From positions 1 to 58,544 of the forward strand of contig CAWIEK010000064.1 in the NCBI GenBank assembly GCA_963835065.1: a DNA stretch of 58,544 nucleotides, given 5' to 3'. This document shows positions 33,001-39,000 of the stretch, in pieces (position 1 is the stretch's first letter; each line of letters opens with the position of its first letter). The stretch comes from an uncultured Chthonomonadaceae bacterium. GTDB taxonomy: Bacteria; Armatimonadota; Chthonomonadetes; Chthonomonadales; Chthonomonadaceae. The position numbers are program-made.

Positions 33001-36000
33001 AAGCCATGCTGCGCGACAAGAAGCGGCAGATTGATTTAATCCTCAAAGCCATCGAACAGGCCGAAGCGCATTTGGAAACGGGACAGCACAATTGGGAAAG
33101 CATTGCCGGAGTGATCGTACAGATTCAAATGGAACAAAAAACGGAGTGGATGCACAAGTATTTCAACGACGCGCAGTTGCAAAAAATGGACGAACTGCAC
33201 CATGCGTCATATTCGCCGGACGCGCAGGCGAAACTGCAAGCGCGGGGCGCGTGGACGGAAGCGGATCAGGAACGCGCCAATCAGCAATGGACGTATCTGG
33301 CTTCCGAATCGCAAAGCCTGTCGGCAGACGGAGCCGACCCTGCGGGAAAGAAGCGCAGGCGCTTGCCCGATTGAAAAGCGAATTGCTGTTCGGCTTTACG
33401 CAGGGCGACCCCGATGTGGAAGCGGGCCTGAAGACGTTCTGGGACAGCCACAACGCGCTTCCCAAAGATGAGCAGCCGCTTGCCTCCCTCGTTCCCGACA
33501 TGGACGACGCGGGCAGCCGGTTTTTGGATGAGGCCATTGCCATCTACAACGAGCGTCAACAGGAGAGTTAGTAGTCCATCAAGGTAGAAGAGTTAGGTAG
33601 GGGCGTTGCTTGCTGCGCCCTCGTTTGAGGAGGGTTCAGCAAGCAGAACCCCTACAACGTACTCTACCGTTCTACTGCGATAGGCGTTCCGCCAACTGTC
33701 CTGCGGACAGAACTCCCTAACGGCAGACAAACGTGTCCGCAGGACATTTAGCCGCAGGCTCATAGCAAAGGAATTCATTCCGTTGAACCTATTGGCAGAA
33801 CACAGTATCAACATCAAAACTGCATTAAGCCGTCTCCAAAACAAACGTGAGGAAGGCAGCCAGCTGCTTTGTCGTTTGCGCAGTGGCCGGGGCGCAGTCT
33901 GCAACGCGCCCACGCCCGCCGTGCCGAACGGATGCTCTGTGGACGCGGCGGGATAGGCATACACGCCTGCGCTCTCCGTGTCCGCTTCCCCAAATCCTGC
34001 TTTCGCTTCCCCAGGCGGCTGTCCGGCAAACAAGCACCATGCCGCCTGCACGGGAGCCTCCACGCGGCGCGAACGGGAACCACGCCGCACAATGGCGTCC
34101 GTATAGGCATGCATTTTGTTTACATCCTCCTGCGCGTCCTCACCCTGCGCATACACCTTAAACTTTGGGTCAAGGATACACAACTTCCCATCCCAATGCA
34201 GCGCCATATCCGGCTGCATGGCATGAGAACGCGAACAAAACACAAAATTGCTTTCGTTTTCCTTCCTCTGCCCTGCCCCTTGATTGGCACTGGAAAACAG
34301 GGGCTGATAGTACAAAGATAATGATGAGTGATGAGTGATGAGTGATGAATCCATTTTCGATTGACGATTGACGATTGACGATTGACGAATGGCAGTCTTC
34401 TGTCTTCTGTCTTCTGTCTTCTTCTCTTCTGTTCCCTGTTCCCTGTTCCCTGTCCCCTCCTCTTCTTTTCTTTCACCTACCCATCGAAACTCCAACCGGG
34501 ACGCGCGGCCTCGGGCGGGAACGAGGCGCAGGCCGTTTGGGGTGGCTTGCAGCAGGGGGCCGCGCGTTAATTGCCAGCCGGATTGGTGCAGGGCGGCGGC
34601 TACTTGCAGCAAACACCAGATTTCGTATAAGTGCCAGGGTTCCAGGGCGGGAAGCGTCAGCAGGGGGCTGCGCGTCCAGTCGAAGTCGAGCGGATGATGG
34701 AGTTGCCGCCAGGCGCGGTAAAGGGTTTGGTAGGGCAAGGCGCAGCGCAGGATTTGGCTTGCGCATTGGGATGGCGACATTTCGCTGGCGGCAAGAACGG
34801 GGCAATCGCGCAGGGTGGGATGGGAGCGCAAGGTTCGCGCTTCCCGCGTCACCTGCAAGGCGGCTTCCATTTCGGGCTGCGCGTCGCAGAACGCCGCCAA
34901 CCGTCCTAACTCTACAGCCTCATGGATGAAATCGTTCAGGATGTGAACAGCCAGGCGATTGGCCCAGGTGTTTGTGGTGGGCGTGGAACGGGTTTCCAAT
35001 ATGGTTTCGGGCGCCGGGAAACGAGCAGTACCGGCAGCCGGCAGCGACTGCCAGGCGGCGGCAAGGCATGGCGACTGCGCGATGGTGTCGGCTGCCTTTG
35101 GCCCGCCCCGCGCCTGCGCCAACAGTACGGATTGCGCCTGCTGCGCCAACCGCGAATCGGCTCCGTTCAGGATGGCCGCAAGCGCGCTTTGCTGCTGCCG
35201 CCACAGCGCGCGCAGTAAATGCAGCCGTTCCAGTGGCGATACAATGGCCCTGTCGCGCGAACGGGGAGAGGCGGAAGCGGAAATGACCGTTGCTTTCTGC
35301 CGCGCCCCTGCTTCTTCCCCCTTTGATTCCTTTGACGCGGGCTGACTCAGGGTGTAGGCAATATGCCCGATGTCTTCCAGCAGCGTCCGGCGCTCACCCG
35401 GCGATAAACACGCGCTGCCCTCTGTTTTGCGGTTGTCTTCCTCTGTTTGCGACATTCCCTGCTTTCCCAATGGCCTTGCTGCCTGCTTTTATTTCGGATA
35501 GTACGCGAAAATCAACGATTTTACGGTGTTTCCGCTTAAATAGGAGGAACATGGGGGCGCGGCATACAATCATACCGGAGTAATCCTGCCGATATTATCA
35601 GCCAATGATGTAGTTACGGTTCCCGAAGACCGGCTGAATGACATTCGCGGACTTGCCAGACGTTTCGATGCCCCCGTATGGCATGTTGACAAACAAGGCC
35701 GGCGTTAATGTTTCGGCATCTTATACTCAGGATGGAGAAATCCGATGCGCCCACATAACGATCCCGACGTGCTTTCGCAGGCCCTTGCGGAGCCGTCGCG
35801 CCGCGCCCTGCTGGAAAATCTGCGCTATGGGCAAAAGACCGTCACGCAGTTGGTGGAAGCGACCACGCTCAAGCAGCCGAACGTGTCCAACCATCTGGCG
35901 AAAATGAAGCAGCAGGGTATTGTACGGGCGGAACGCATGGGGCGTCAAGTGTATTACTCGCTTTCTGCGCCCTTTGCGGACGTTTTAATGCGGATGCACG

Positions 36001-39000
36001 AGATTGCGGCCAACCCCGTTGTTGAAATTGCCGCGCCGCTGCAATCGCCTCTAAAAGTAATAAGCAACGATAAAGCAGGGCAGTCAACGCAAAAAGAACA
36101 AGCCTCCTTCCACGCGCTCATCGGCAGCGCTCCGGCACATTCTCCCCGTGAGGGAGAGTACCATGCGCCCCGGCCTTCTGCCGAAGAAGATTCGGGAGCA
36201 AGCGCCGATTTCCTGCATCCGTATCGGGACGCCTATTTTCGGGCGATGATGGCCGGCGACGAAGAGCAGGCCGTCACCTTAGTCAACGCTCTTGTCGCGC
36301 AGCGCCTGCCGCTGGAAACCATTTATACGGAAGTGTTCGCCAAAAGCATCAATGACATCGGGGAATTGTACCGGCAGGGCATTACCGATGAGGCGCACGA
36401 ACACATGGCATCGGCCATTATGGAGCGCATGATGGCGCGGGTGGCGCAGTTTTATACCCCCGTTGCCCGCGTCTCGTGCCGCGCCCTGCTCGGATGCGTT
36501 GCCGGTAACTGGCACATGCTCGGACTGCGGATGCTGGCGGACGGGCTGAAAACGCTGGGCTGGGAAACCATCTTTTTGGGAGCCAATGTGCCGACCGTCA
36601 GTTTCATTTCCATGGCGCAGGCTGTGAAGCCTGATCTTGTAATTGTATCCTGCGCAATGCAGGAACAGGCGGAAGCGGCGCATGACCTGCTGACCCAACT
36701 CGCGCTGATACGCCAGAAAGAAGTCCAATCCCCTTTTCAAATCGCGGCAGGCGGGCACTACTTTCTCGAACACGCCGAGGGCATAACGCGCCTGCCCATT
36801 GACTTTACCGCCGCCGACTTACGCCAATTCCTGGACCAGATTAAATACCGCTTTCCCGAACAGCCTGTTGCCTGAGCGTCCAATCGTTAAGGCGCGTGGT
36901 TTTTGGCAGGGAAAGCCTGCTAAATATGTCAGTGTAAGCGCTTTATCCGCGCGCAAAGTCTAGTCTGACTAGACAGAAAAAATAATTCATAAATTTTTTC
37001 CAAACCCCTTGTCAAATCTGGCTGACAGTGTTATAATAAGACTGTACAAAGCAACGGGGCAAGACAAACGGTTTTCCCGGCGCTTTTACCAAATTTCCAG
37101 ACGTGCTATTCCGACGCGGGGGGCGTCCGGCGTAGCCGAAGCCTTTATGGAAACAGGCCACTCAGGGAGATAGCCTGCTACTGTAAAGGAGAATAAGGGC
37201 GAGACGACTTCTGGGGGGAATGTCGTCTCGCCCGCCATTCGTTTGGGAAGGTTTCAGGTGTCAGGTGTCAGGTGTCAGGGGCAATGCTGCTGTTATGCGT
37301 AATATAGCACAAAGCAGTACGCTTTTCCTGACACCTGACACCTGACACCTGAAACCTTCCTCTCTGGTATACTACTGCCATGATGCGATTGGAAGCGCGG
37401 GAAGTGACGGGCGGGTATGGGAGCCGGGACGTGGTGCGGGGCGTGAGTCTGGCCTGCGCGTCCGGGGAGTTCGTTGGCCTGATTGGGCCGAACGGCTGCG
37501 GCAAGTCCACCTTGCTGCGCCTGCTGTCGGGCATCTTGCGTCCGCGGCAGGGCGCGGTTTGGCTGGAAGAGCGCGTCCTGACCTCGTTTACGGCGCGGGA
37601 AATTGCGCGGCGTATGGCGTTTGTGCCGCAGGAAGAAAAAGCCGCCTTCGAGTTTACCGTGCAGGATGTGGTCTTGATGGGACGGTTTGCGCACCGCGCA
37701 GGGCTGCGCGGGCCGAACAGCGAGGATTACGCGATTGTGGAACGCGCGCTGACGGCGCTGGACGTCGGGCATCTGAAAGCGCGTTCCATCACGGAATTGT
37801 CGGGGGGCGAGCATCGGCGCGTCCTGCTGGCGCGAGGATTGGCGCAGCAAACGCCCCTATTGCTGCTGGACGAGCCGACCGCGCATTTGGACATAACCCA
37901 TCAGGCGGAACTGCTGGAGCAAACGCGCGGCCTGACCCACGACCCCGTGAATCCCATCGGCGCATTGGCCGCGCTTCACGATCTCAATCAGGCGGCGGAA
38001 TTTTGCGACCGGCTGGTTTTGATGCACGAAGGCCGGGTGCTGGCGCAGGGAACGCCGGATGAGGTTTTACAGCCCGATGGTCTGCGCATCGCTTATCAGG
38101 GTGAAGCGCAGGTAGGCCGCAATCCCGTCACGGGTCGCCCCATGCTGTTCGCCCTGCGCCCCCTCCGCGCTCCTCTCACGGCGCAATTGTCCGATTCATC
38201 CTCCGAAGCAACAAAAAATGAAGCGAAACCGGTAATCAGCCCGTAAATGACTTAGGAGCGCGGTATTGTAACTGCGCCAGACCTACCCGGACGGTATACT
38301 TTATCGCATAATCGGCAGAAATGATGTATGATATTCTCAGGGCCGATTCGCTGTTTCCAGTTGTCTCGGCGCTATAGCAACCCTGCATCCATCCGTTTCA
38401 ATGCTGATCATGGCGTTGATTTCATTGTTTTCTGTTTTTCTTGTTTTCCCTTGTTCCCATCTGTCTAAGGAGACTTTCGCATGTCTATGCTGTCCCTGCG
38501 CGCCAATCGCCGCGCCCTTTCCGTGTGGAGCGCGTTCGCGCTCGTTCCCGTTGTGCTGACCGGCACACTGACCCTCGCGCCCCGAACCTCCCGCGCCATG
38601 CAGGATGCCACTGACGCCAAAAAGGACGATAAAACCTACACCATCGTTCGCGCCTACAAGGCCAACGAACTCAACCACTACAAAATCGGAGCCAACATCA
38701 AAGCCAACGTTCCCACGCAGGGGGAAGTGAACATTGTTTTGACGATGAAGATGAAGGAAACTATAAAAAGCGTCAAGGACGACGGCACGGCAACGGTAGT
38801 CAGCGACTTTGACGAAGCCACTTTCAAAATGAACGATATGGAGAACGAGATTACGTCGGCTCTGCCTGTTATTACGACAACGGTGGACAAGCAGGGGCAT
38901 ATTCTCACCACGAAATTCGAGGGCGGCGACGCGCAATTCACCACCGGGCAGGGCGCGCAAATGTTGAGTGGCCTGAGTCAGCCCGGCCTATACCCTGCCA

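Follow-up and report, generated by a model that had tools for sequence, protein, structure and literature searches.

Domain layout and family conservation

The window, a stretch of 58,544 nucleotides from an uncultured Chthonomonadaceae bacterium (contig CAWIEK010000064.1), contains a gene whose product joins an ArsR-type DNA-binding head to a two-part B12-binding module through a linker (Table 1). The ORF begins with ATG, and GGAG is located 9 nt upstream of this start. Four Pfam domains were matched, all above their curated cut-offs: HTH_5 at residues 17 to 61 (6.3e-11; 42.4 against a cut-off of 22), HTH_20 at 14 to 61 (2.8e-07), B12-binding_2 (PF02607) at 161 to 232 (1.5e-14), and B12-binding (PF02310) at 246 to 349 (1.1e-15). 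A preliminary description of the gene had listed the same domain coordinates for this fusion, with slightly different E-values. The head reaches 73 bits with the NCBIfam ArsR/SmtB subfamily model NF033788 (cut-off, 55), and the HTH models matched in Pfam are those of ArsR, with no MerR model among them. The AF2 model has a mean pLDDT of 84.

Table 1 Features of the ArsR-B12 gene and its upstream region (window coordinates)
Feature	Position	Strand	Evidence
Weak candidate operator GATATTATC, 154 nt 5' of the ATG	35591..35599		Likeness to the TGATATATCA palindrome, with one central base extra
Whole gene, ArsR head + linker + B12-binding module, 376 aa	35745..36875	+	ORF, Pfam, NCBIfam, homologues, AF2 model
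ArsR/SmtB winged helix-turn-helix, residues 7-96 (α1-α2-α3-αR-β1-β2-α5)	35763..36032	+	Pfam HTH_5/HTH_20, NCBIfam NF033788, AF2 secondary structure
Disordered, low-complexity linker, residues 94-148	36024..36188	+	pLDDT <50 at 94-140 and 142-145; alignment columns 101-215
Four-helix bundle (upper-ligand cap), residues 149-237	36189..36455	+	Pfam B12-binding_2, model, residue counts
E219-H220 codons (CarH E141-H142 equivalent)	36399..36404	+	Residue counts; aligned with EH of 8j2x and 8jbs
Rossmann-type B12-binding domain, residues 246-369	36480..36851	+	Pfam B12-binding, model, Foldseek
H257 codon, predicted lower axial cobalt ligand (CarH H177 equivalent)	36513..36515	+	Residue counts; aligned with GxxH His of 8j2x and 8jbs

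In passing the subfamily cut-off and in its α1-α5 winged-helix fold, the head resembles the ArsR/SmtB metalloregulators, whose metal-site patterns are an α3N Cys pair and an α5 Asp/His/Glu site (DxH-x10-HxxE). However, residues 1 to 100 contain no Cys, no α3N metal-site pattern and no α5 DxH-x10-HxxE pattern. The head is therefore not expected to be a metal sensor, and sensing appears to have moved to the fused B12 module. Its recognition helix reads K43-QPNVSNHL-A52. The linker differs in length among family members, and distant members align without it. The four-helix bundle carries G206-E-L-Y209 (GxxY, where CarH has GxxW), R210 at the position of CarH H132, and the E219-H220 pair, while the Rossmann domain carries N255-W-H257-M-L-G260, G279-ANV-P283, S302 and G336-G337.

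A homologue search yielded 167 clusters at an E-value of ≤0.001, and nearly all of the best 120 share the order ArsR, B12-binding_2 and B12-binding, reproducing the cluster count, source names and shared architecture reported previously. Among 1.84 billion clusters at 50% identity, about 84 representatives reach E ≤1e-30; together with domain matches of 1e-11 to 1e-15, this places the architecture far beyond chance. In an alignment of 37 sequences picked from the best 120 of the 167 clusters and covering 37 to 69% identity, E219, H220, H257, G260, P283, G336 and G337 are invariant (37/37), as is the recognition helix K43-Q-P-N-x-S-N-H-L51. The E-H pair and the axial-ligand His are thus retained, as had been proposed, and Y209 lies ten residues upstream of E219, giving a Y-x9-E-H spacing. 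Residue counts over 174 family members show the same pattern (E219, 170/174; H220, 168/174; H257, 170/174; P283, 173/174). Position 209 is aromatic in 162 of them (Y, 123; W, 23; F, 16), and His is outside the eight commonest residues at position 210, which is Arg in this gene. Three of the four elements of the SignatureFinder signature for light-responsive B12 domains (GxxW, EH, GxxH and GxxxP; PMC11796333) are present as EH, GNWH and GANVP. The fourth is GELY (GxxY), with a conservative Tyr, and the protein would therefore fail the GxxW filter in its published form.

Solved relatives and the predicted dimer

When solved structures were searched by sequence, the best matches were the photocobilins (8j2x, 9.3e-19; 8j2w, 1.2e-18) and CtMerR of Chloracidobacterium thermophilum (8jbs, 2e-16), followed at weaker values by the corrinoid protein MttC (7e-06), a second corrinoid methyl carrier (4e-05) and Thermus thermophilus CarH (TtCarH; 1.8e-03). 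Foldseek gave 8j2w (2.5e-15), 8jbs (TM, 0.89) and the TtCarH B12 domain (TM, 0.82 to 0.84), and it also matched corrinoid protein and methionine synthase folds well (3ezx, TM 0.85; 1bmt, TM 0.73). Other B12 modules near that of the ArsR-B12 protein sit on GntR, XRE and MerR heads.

CtMerR is a known B12 photoreceptor (PDB 8JBS, dark; 8JBT, light; Yu et al., FEBS J 2024, PMC11796333). Its bundle and Rossmann module align over residues 161 to 375, sharing the EH, GxxH and GxxxP motifs and an Arg at the CarH H132 position. In contrast, its first ~107 residues, described as MerR-like by its authors (PMC11796333), do not align with the ArsR head; it has the Trp of GxxW where Tyr stands here, and the ArsR-B12 protein adds a 55-residue disordered linker. 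The photocobilins (SasPcob, 8J2W/8J2X; AbDPcob, 8J2Y; Zhang et al., Nat Commun 2024, PMC10979010), the best match of the B12 module in both sequence and fold, likewise align at the EH and GxxH motifs. However, they combine the module with a globin-like biliverdin domain, have no DNA-binding head, keep the Trp of GxxW, and act on enzymes or partner proteins rather than DNA (PMC10979010). According to both papers, the photocobilins and CtMerR bind AdoCbl and are photolyzed under green light (PMC10979010, PMC11796333), whereas the ArsR-B12 protein is known from its sequence and models. A light-responsive reading gains weight because these closest solved B12 domains are experimentally light responsive.

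The ArsR-B12 protein shares with CarH/LitR (TtCarH, PDB 5C8D/E/F) the logic of a DNA-binding head on a B12 module, the x9-E-H spacing, the axial His and the fold of the module. However, CarH has a MerR-type head, sequence similarity is low, and the protein scores 40.6 bits with the NCBIfam CarH model NF052513 (cut-off, 400). CarH W131, a key adenosyl contact, corresponds to Tyr, and CarH H132, which forms the bis-His light state, corresponds to Arg.

Assignment as a methyltransferase corrinoid protein (MtbC/MttC/MtaC/MtgC) is not supported: these NCBIfam models score 24 to 39 bits against cut-offs of 215 to 450, and no methyltransferase was found among the regulator's neighbors. It is highly improbable that the protein is a methyl carrier with an incidental HTH, as the annotation "methanogenic corrinoid protein MtbC1" of some source entries and the weak corrinoid matches of 33 to 39 bits might suggest, or a cobalamin-independent regulator like Myxococcus CarA. 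Against a CarA-type loss of B12 binding, the near-invariant axial His and E-H pair argue for a retained ligand.

A homodimer was predicted with a score of 0.74, compared to 0.00 for the best of three controls. Of 30 proteins solved as one-chain pairs, 20 reach the mark that it passes, as does 1 of 23 single-chain structures; these counts apply only roughly here because a custom alignment was used. At least 72% of contacts agree between runs, and partner pLDDT is at least 71. In the model, bundle residues 171-177 and 215-235 pack against the 275-290 loop of the second subunit (e.g., 220-279 and 217-283), so that the predicted interface is the head-to-tail type of CarH. The CtMerR crystal dimer resembles it: in the same head-to-tail arrangement, Pro228 of the neighboring monomer touches the adenosyl group (PMC11796333). 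Similar complexes have already been solved, and the dimer pass may thus reflect those solved relatives. The ArsR head makes no confident contacts in the complex model.

ArsR heads normally dimerize via α1 and α5, and both helices are present in the model. It is conceivable, but distinctly unlikely, that the protein is a DNA-bound ArsR dimer that changes only its geometry in light, or a B12-dependent co-regulator that switches partners like the stand-alone photocobilins or AerR/PpaA. The AerR/PpaA antirepressors of purple bacteria lack a DNA-binding head, act on CrtJ/PpsR and differ in ligand chemistry. They are, like the protein proposed here, cobalamin-binding regulators with light-dependent activity (PMC9144470). 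R210, which replaces the His responsible for collapse of the TtCarH tetramer, would fit such a switch, as would the modest rearrangement reported for the CtMerR light structure (PMC11796333) and the protein-protein contacts through which photocobilins work (PMC10979010). However, the protein has its own DNA-binding head, no conserved partner gene adjoins it across the family, and the predicted CarH-type interface scored well.

Genomic context, distribution and candidate operator

Among the 75 loci in which the regulator start was located, no gene linked to light, such as one for carotenoid synthesis or a photolyase, was found beside the regulator. The recurrent neighbors are a divergent acyl-CoA dehydrogenase (28/75), a PD-(D/E)XK protein (10/75) and housekeeping genes. 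A FecE/BtuD-type ABC ATPase follows the regulator in 6/75 loci, all in one family. The preliminary description saw a possible uptake ABC system next door, which does not hold: the ATPase is an orphan whose start codon is preceded, at a distance of a few bases, by a −10 box; the interval between regulator and ATPase contains a distinct RNA gene that ends in or carries a terminator-like hairpin; and the genome's sole pair of FecCD permease and Peripla_BP_2 binding protein is on another contig. The orphan seems to supply the ATPase that this pair lacks. Among NCBIfam models, it matches "corrinoid ABC transporter ATPase" best (278.9 bits, below the cut-off of 537), and a heme ABC model fits about equally well (252.6 bits; cut-off, 261). 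Just downstream of the regulator, a conserved structured RNA of ~150 nt has no Rfam match.

This context bears on whether the protein is instead a dark sensor of B12 supply, which would accept any upper ligand and tune B12-related or B12-sparing genes, with light being physiologically irrelevant. The B12-binding residues fit that reading too; the ATPase with its sub-cut-off corrinoid match, its apparent role in completing the only FecCD/Peripla_BP_2 pair, and the lack of a light-related neighbor point the same way. We nevertheless consider it somewhat unlikely. The ATPase has a −10 box of its own and the RNA gene intervenes, the heme model does about as well, and the linkage is confined to one family. 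A cobalamin riboswitch elsewhere in the genome could already sense B12 supply. In addition, the invariant E-H pair with an aromatic residue at 209 is the adenosyl-pocket signature of light sensors. No characterized protein combining an HTH with a B12 module is known to us as a dark sensor of B12 supply, and the characterized close relatives are all photoreceptors.

The source genome encodes only three B12-binding domains, in the ArsR-B12 gene, a 1,284-aa frame and a radical-SAM protein, and no MerR-type CarH was found in it. It is able to make and use AdoCbl, as judged from a PduO-type adenosyltransferase and a three-piece match to class II ribonucleotide reductase. PF00875 photolyase was not found in this genome (91.9% complete). 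Of 301 sampled genomes, 46 carry the regulator; within its own family, it is present in 13 of 17 further genomes. The regulator had been tied to Chthonomonadaceae but is spread over at least five Armatimonadota families. By hand count, crtI occurs in 39/46 regulator-bearing genomes versus 116/255 others, a comparison confounded by kinship. Whole crtI-rich families are without the regulator (0/13 in f14 and 0/19 in f29), and the co-occurrence is only loose.

Of 73 upstream regions of orthologues, 10 contain the perfect palindrome TGATATATCA 33 to 63 nt ahead of the start codon. It is present in only 12 copies in ~1 Mb of loci, and in two whole genomes the upstream copy is the sole one. Autoregulation is likely in at least one sub-clade. 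The palindrome is limited to one sub-clade or a few related clades, the window does not contain it in this exact form, and a regulon search with it returned no regulon. The GATATTATC-type sites of the source genome occur at chance frequency (23, versus ~28 expected), and GATATTATC is proposed as an operator only tentatively.

Proposed mechanism and implications

The combination of an ArsR head with the B12 module of known green-light sensors makes the gene product probably a B12-dependent, light-released repressor, of a kind characteristic of Armatimonadota. We consider it reasonably probable that it acts as an adenosylcobalamin-dependent, CarH-like repressor with an ArsR head. By homology, cobalamin would be held base-off/His-on via H257, the 5'-deoxyadenosyl upper ligand would lie under the bundle facing Y209, E219 and H220, and the G279-P283 loop of the second subunit would seal the pocket. 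In the dark, the predicted head-to-tail pairing of B12 modules, perhaps into tetramers as in CarH and CtMerR, may keep several ArsR heads on operator DNA and so repress transcription. Green, blue or UV light would then cleave the Co-C bond, loosen the assembly and free the promoter. Given Arg instead of His at position 210, a light state like that of CtMerR, with no bis-His adduct, is expected rather than that of TtCarH. ArsR proteins are normally constitutive dimers, and CarH-style release by monomerization may therefore not apply.

The preliminary description's cobalamin-dependent, probably light-responsive repressor is partly borne out: its architecture, motifs and likely cobalamin dependence are supported, and the light reading gains weight from the closest solved B12 domains. 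No linked light gene was found and no regulon could be derived. A bolder version is unlikely: that ArsR-B12 proteins are the main photoreceptor of Armatimonadota with a mechanism unlike that of CarH, in which a constitutively dimeric ArsR head, a floppy linker and a light-breakable B12 dimer would let light alter avidity or DNA looping. Its regulon would be non-carotenoid, e.g., the Fimbriimonadales acyl-CoA dehydrogenase/ETF module or, in the source clade, the neighboring family-specific G-loop small RNA.

A literature search retrieved no paper naming an ArsR-B12 fusion, and sensing by a B12 module was not found described for the ArsR family. The novelty is smaller than first claimed, since a 2024 mining paper (PMC11796333) counts 1,561 signature-bearing B12 light-sensing domains in fusions with "HTH" and other domains. 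If AdoCbl is bound and DNA is released in light, ArsR would be a third head type beside MerR and those unnamed "HTH" clusters. Tyr or Phe could then stand in for the hallmark Trp, so that published signature filters would miss most of the family, and a green-light optogenetic switch with an orthogonal operator might be derived. To our knowledge, Armatimonadota have no characterized light sensor, and the regulator would be a candidate for one. Chthonomonas calidirosea is cultured and carries an orthologue (P0048, 51% identical), which makes the claim directly testable.

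The regulator joins an ArsR head to a B12 module with conserved ligand residues

The regulator gene of the preliminary description is a genuine open reading frame, starting with ATG nine bases downstream of a GGAG motif and encoding 376 amino acids with the expected Pfam domains. HTH_5 (residues 17-61; 6.3e-11), HTH_20 (14-61), B12-binding_2 (161-232; 1.5e-14) and B12-binding (246-349; 1.1e-15) all score above their curated cut-offs. In NCBIfam, the head passes as an ArsR/SmtB subfamily member (73 bits; cut-off, 55), and the CarH equivalog scores 40.6 bits, below the 400 required. 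The homolog search reported earlier was reproduced, with 167 clusters at E<=0.001; nearly all of the best 120 of these carry the three-part architecture and the source names quoted there.

An AlphaFold2 model (mean pLDDT, 84) was built on an alignment of 37 rows, picked from the best 120 of the 167 homolog clusters to span 37-69% identity. Its domain boundaries are listed in the table. Across the family alignment, the disordered stretch ranges in length from absent to about 100 residues. On inspection of its sequence, the head contains neither cysteine nor an a5-type Asp/His/Glu pattern, which we take to be the patterns that mark ArsR metal sites. The head thus looks like a plain DNA-binding module that would leave sensing to the B12 part.

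Positions of features in the window, in the regulator protein and on other contigs of the genome
Feature	Location	Strand	Remarks
Alanyl-tRNA synthetase	28663-31658	-	three consecutive ORFs
PD-(D/E)XK_7/DUF2357 protein	33593-35470	-	625 aa
Regulator ORF	35745..36875	+	
Regulator, canonical ArsR fold (a1-a2-a3-aR-b1-b2-a5)	residues 7-96		AlphaFold2 model
Regulator, disordered stretch	residues 94-148		pLDDT <50
Regulator, four-helix bundle	residues 149-237		AlphaFold2 model
Regulator, Rossmann domain	residues 246-369		AlphaFold2 model
Perfect palindrome GTCTAGTCTGACTAGAC	36958-36974		17 bp; 35 nt 5' of the structured-RNA promoter
Structured-RNA promoter	37009-37037		conserved, near-consensus (11/12 consensus positions)
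Structured RNA (~150 nt)	37096-37245	+	between regulator and ABC ATPase
GGTGTCA hairpin	37246-37360		
Orphan FecE/BtuD-type ABC ATPase	37380-38246	+	
Globin/nitric oxide synthase protein	41370-45455	+	1361 aa
NAD-binding part of the 1361-aa protein	45314-46138		overlapping ORF, other frame
FecCD permease and Peripla_BP_2 protein	contig C53, 399407-401508		
Cobalamin riboswitch	contig C49, 773319-773528		
Class II ribonucleotide reductase match	contig C49, 532277-536768		three pieces

E219, H220, H257, G260, P283, G336 and G337 are invariant in all 37 rows, as is the recognition helix K43-QPN-x-SNHL. For a larger set of 174 pooled family members, the recognition-helix motif and a minimum length of 250 aa were required; the constancy of this motif there is by construction. 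In this set, the axial His (H257) and E219 are each kept in 170 members, H220 in 168 and the Pro of GxxxP (P283) in 173. Position 209 is Y in 123 members, W in 23, F in 16 and another residue in 12.

Relationship to B12 light sensors and predicted pairing

The text of Yu et al. (FEBS J 2024, PMC11796333) defines the signature of light-responsive B12 domains as GxxW, EH, GxxH and GxxxP, and lists W131, E141, H142 and H177 as key contacts of Thermus thermophilus CarH (TtCarH). The regulator has GELY, EH, GNWH and GANVP at these places, matching three of the four motifs and showing a conservative aromatic change (Y for W) in GxxW. Because position 209 is mostly not W, most members of the ArsR-B12 family would fail this signature filter. 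The position equivalent to CarH H132 varies among the 174 members (E in 42, Q in 32, V in 22, and others) and is Arg in the regulator. The same Arg is found in CtMerR, the Chloracidobacterium thermophilum B12 photoreceptor, which according to the text of PMC11796333 forms no bis-His adduct.

The closest CHARACTERISED relatives were ranked by sequence against all PDB chains. The photocobilins 8j2x (9.3e-19) and 8j2w (1.2e-18) lead, followed by the B12 domain of CtMerR (8jbs; 2e-16 over residues 161-375) and a further photocobilin (8j2y; 3.7e-12). Lower ranks hold the corrinoid proteins 7xcn (7e-06) and 1y80 (4e-05), TtCarH (5c8a; 1.8e-03) and methionine synthase (9cbq; ~2e-03). CtMerR and the photocobilins are described as binding AdoCbl, photolyzing in green light and changing state (texts of PMC11796333 and PMC10979010, respectively). 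CtMerR is reported to show a shift to about 540 nm with a 560-nm shoulder in its AdoCbl spectrum, and conversion to a 356-nm species under 530-nm pulses. As these best matches are both light responsive, the sequence of the regulator's B12 module groups it with light sensors that have been proven by experiment.

In Foldseek, the same chains come first (8j2w, 2.5e-15; 8jbs, TM of 0.89 on the target), and the TtCarH B12 domain has TM values of 0.82-0.84. Generic corrinoid folds match as well (3ezx, 0.85; 1bmt, 0.73), so fold similarity by itself is not discriminating. The near-constant axial His speaks against a ligand-free or methyl-carrier protein, as do the NCBIfam corrinoid-protein models, whose scores all stay below their cut-offs (24-39 bits; cut-offs, 215-450). 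We regard this idea as highly improbable.

Two full-length copies of the regulator were folded together on the 37-row alignment, alongside three controls. The homodimer scored 0.74, compared to 0.00 for the best control. Of 30 proteins known to be same-chain pairs from solved structures, 20 reach the score mark, as does one of 23 solved as single chains; this calibration holds only roughly because our own alignment was used. The runs share at least 72% of their contacts, with a partner pLDDT of at least 71. The confident contacts form a symmetric interface, which places the bundle of one copy (171-177 and 215-235, including H220) against the loop of the other (275-290, including G279-P283). 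In the model, this is the head-to-tail arrangement of CarH and CtMerR, although similar complexes have already been solved and the predictor may be reproducing them. CtMerR forms a tetramer, with Trp156 and Pro228 of the neighboring monomer touching the adenosyl group (text of PMC11796333).

Overall, the regulator is probably an AdoCbl-dependent, light-released repressor that combines CarH logic and CtMerR-like photochemistry with an ArsR head. The B12 modules of two copies are predicted to pair head to tail. The regulator would bind AdoCbl and repress in the dark, light would drive its release, and it may control its own gene. Residues of the ArsR head are absent from the confident contacts of the complex model, which carries no weight in either direction. 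A light-dependent switch of partner or geometry that proceeds without dissociation strikes us as improbable.

Distribution and genomic context

When one genome per species was scanned, 101 genomes encoded a relative, of which 80 were kept; these are titled Chthonomonadales, Fimbriimonadales or unclassified Armatimonadota, together with a few oddly labeled bins. An ortholog is also present in Chthonomonas calidirosea. Among 301 sampled genomes of the phylum, 65 match at E<=1e-30, and the match table indicates 46 full-length proteins (head and B12 module) and 19 B12 modules only. Full-length matches occur in 13 of 17 genomes of the window's own family (f1, window's genome not counted), in 6/15 of family f2, 18/31 of f11, 6/7 of f8 and 2/3 of f9, and are absent from many other families in this 301-genome sample.

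A FastTree phylogeny of B12 modules (midpoint root, SH-like support only) combined 36 members of the motif-selected set of 174 with 82 other modules, and a branch with a support of 99 sets all 36 on the same side. The same side holds 21 unlabeled rows, 16 with a variant or cut-off head and five without a head match; the latter are short records and probably fragments. On the opposite side, B12 modules are attached to globin or phycobilisome-like domains, to heads of the GntR, XRE and MerR types, and to a second ArsR/MarR-like head whose recognition helix differs. The B12 module is thus a widely reused plug-in sensor cassette, found on many heads including the ArsR type. Outside the family, the closest B12 modules belong to proteins P0192, P0195, P0196, P0197, P0204, P0207, P0211, P0229, P0239, P0234, P0237 and P0209, some of them with an XRE head at the N or C terminus.

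No light-related neighbor gene was found beside the regulator at the 75 loci where its start could be placed. At 28 loci, all of Fimbriimonadales type and usually with rplT/infC or ETF genes close by, a divergent short-chain acyl-CoA dehydrogenase lies directly upstream. A divergent PD-(D/E)XK_7 gene takes this place at 10 loci, a pattern that includes the window, where the protein carries a low-complexity insert rich in Lys/Glu/Arg midway. Elsewhere in the window, the alanyl-tRNA synthetase is split into pieces with tRNA-synt_2c (1-261), tRNA-synt_2c (276-436) and tRNA_SAD plus DHHA1, which suggests frameshifts or sequencing errors in the contig. The 1361-aa protein, comprising globin, nitric oxide synthase oxygenase, flavodoxin and FAD-binding parts, is a large multidomain bacterial NOS; the frame change before its NAD-binding part could reflect either a frameshift or a mistake in the assembly.

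At six loci, the window among them in arrangement, a FecE/BtuD-type ABC ATPase lies downstream. Of the possible uptake ABC system proposed earlier for this position, the ATPase is indeed present, but the only FecCD permease of the genome is found with a Peripla_BP_2 protein on a different contig, where no ATPase accompanies them. Corrinoid, heme or siderophore are candidate substrates. A -10 box apparently stands a few bases 5' of the ATPase start codon, as in five orthologous loci, so its mRNA may be leaderless. Co-transcription of the ATPase with the regulator is not obvious. Their 504-nt spacer contains a strong promoter that is conserved, a structured RNA with a terminator-like hairpin and this further -10 box. 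A riboswitch before the ATPase was also considered and rejected, as Rfam gave no match at gathering score, nor at E<=10 in 36850-37420 except for spurious microRNA hits on a repeat hairpin.

Only three B12-binding domains occur in the genome (8.0 Mb, 71 contigs, 91.9% complete), namely those of the regulator, a 1284-aa frame and a radical-SAM protein. Neither a MerR-type CarH nor a PF00875 photolyase was found in this 91.9% complete assembly. Its single cobalamin riboswitch is on a different contig from the regulator and is followed by pilin-like N_methyl/DUF1559, NMT1-like binding protein and DUF169 genes, with no classical btu operon. A PduO-type adenosyltransferase is present, and the match to the model of class II (adenosylcobalamin-dependent) ribonucleotide reductase is broken up by long gaps inside open frames of 1303 and 691 aa; this nrdJ looks intein-containing or otherwise interrupted. 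AdoCbl should therefore be available, and RNA can already sense the supply of B12. The adjacent orphan ATPase, with a corrinoid among its candidate substrates, speaks for a regulator that senses B12 supply in the dark, and this RNA route speaks against it; we consider such a sensor unlikely.

Two crtI-family and two SQS_PSY genes were also detected. By hand count, crtI occurs in 39 of the 46 regulator-bearing genomes and in 116 of the 255 others. This association was set aside as loose and confounded by kinship, and crtI-rich families without the regulator contradict it. As to expression, no RNA dataset was listed for the sequence; the DNA datasets with shares of 0.56 and 0.26 carry soil and biocrust metagenome labels and do not count as evidence.

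Operator search, downstream RNA and significance

K-mer and palindrome enrichment over 73 upstream regions of orthologs yielded a single enriched palindrome, TGATATATCA, in 10 regions from a few related clades. It sits 33-63 nt 5' of the start codon, with 12 copies in total in ~1 Mb of loci. Of five other genomes searched, two (complete or near-complete) carry the perfect palindrome only in the regulator promoter, a third has a second copy within a coding region and two lack it. Its position before the start codon and its uniqueness in two genomes suggest autoregulation in these few clades. One-mismatch sites number 7-22 per genome, compared to 2-6 for the reversed control, and a close pair precedes an unrelated small ArsR-like gene. 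In the window's genome, TGATATATCA and its variants are at chance level, and the upstream region holds only the imperfect look-alike GATATTATC, at -154, which likewise has chance frequency. No regulon emerged from the TGATATATCA search in the 73 upstream regions, the window's own genome and the five others, and no consistent motif is shared by the upstream and downstream intergenic regions at nine loci.

The structured RNA downstream of the regulator has a GGGGGG loop in each of its two hairpins, one at the 5' side and a long terminator-like one at the 3' side, and shows compensatory changes in 10 of 22 predicted pairs (11 sequences). Searches with a covariance model detect it in 31 of 34 other sampled genomes belonging to the window's family and in none of 26 sampled from the two remaining families of the order. 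No Rfam family matches it, and it looks like a new family-specific small RNA. The -35 region of its promoter is part of the inverted repeat TTGTCA-N8-TGACA (37009). Both this repeat and GTCTAGTCTGACTAGAC were rejected as operators, each being unique in the genome and without a tie to the regulator. The neighboring hairpin of tandem GGTGTCA units facing their complement is long and perfect, yields spurious microRNA-family matches and is missing from the orthologous spacers of other loci.

The RNA adjoins the regulator in the window's genome (G000) and in sampled genomes G266, G080, G092 and G204, lies on a different contig in G150, G011, G228 and G236, and is present without a regulator match in G132, G159, G252 and G287. 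With adjacency only partial and four genomes carrying the RNA without a regulator match, a functional link was rejected and the arrangement is read as synteny.

In the literature searched, no paper naming an ArsR-B12-domain fusion was found. Architectures of B12 photoreceptors are reportedly treated in a 2017 review. B12 light-sensing domains on varied output domains, including 'HTH', are already described in the texts of PMC11796333 and PMC10979010. The words 'ArsR' and 'winged' are absent from the text and supplement text of PMC11796333, but a cluster of this kind may be present in its Fig. 9, its Fig. S9 or its online network. The regulator represents a phylum-wide candidate photoreceptor that can be tested, and its Tyr/Phe-for-Trp change would widen the accepted light-sensor signature.
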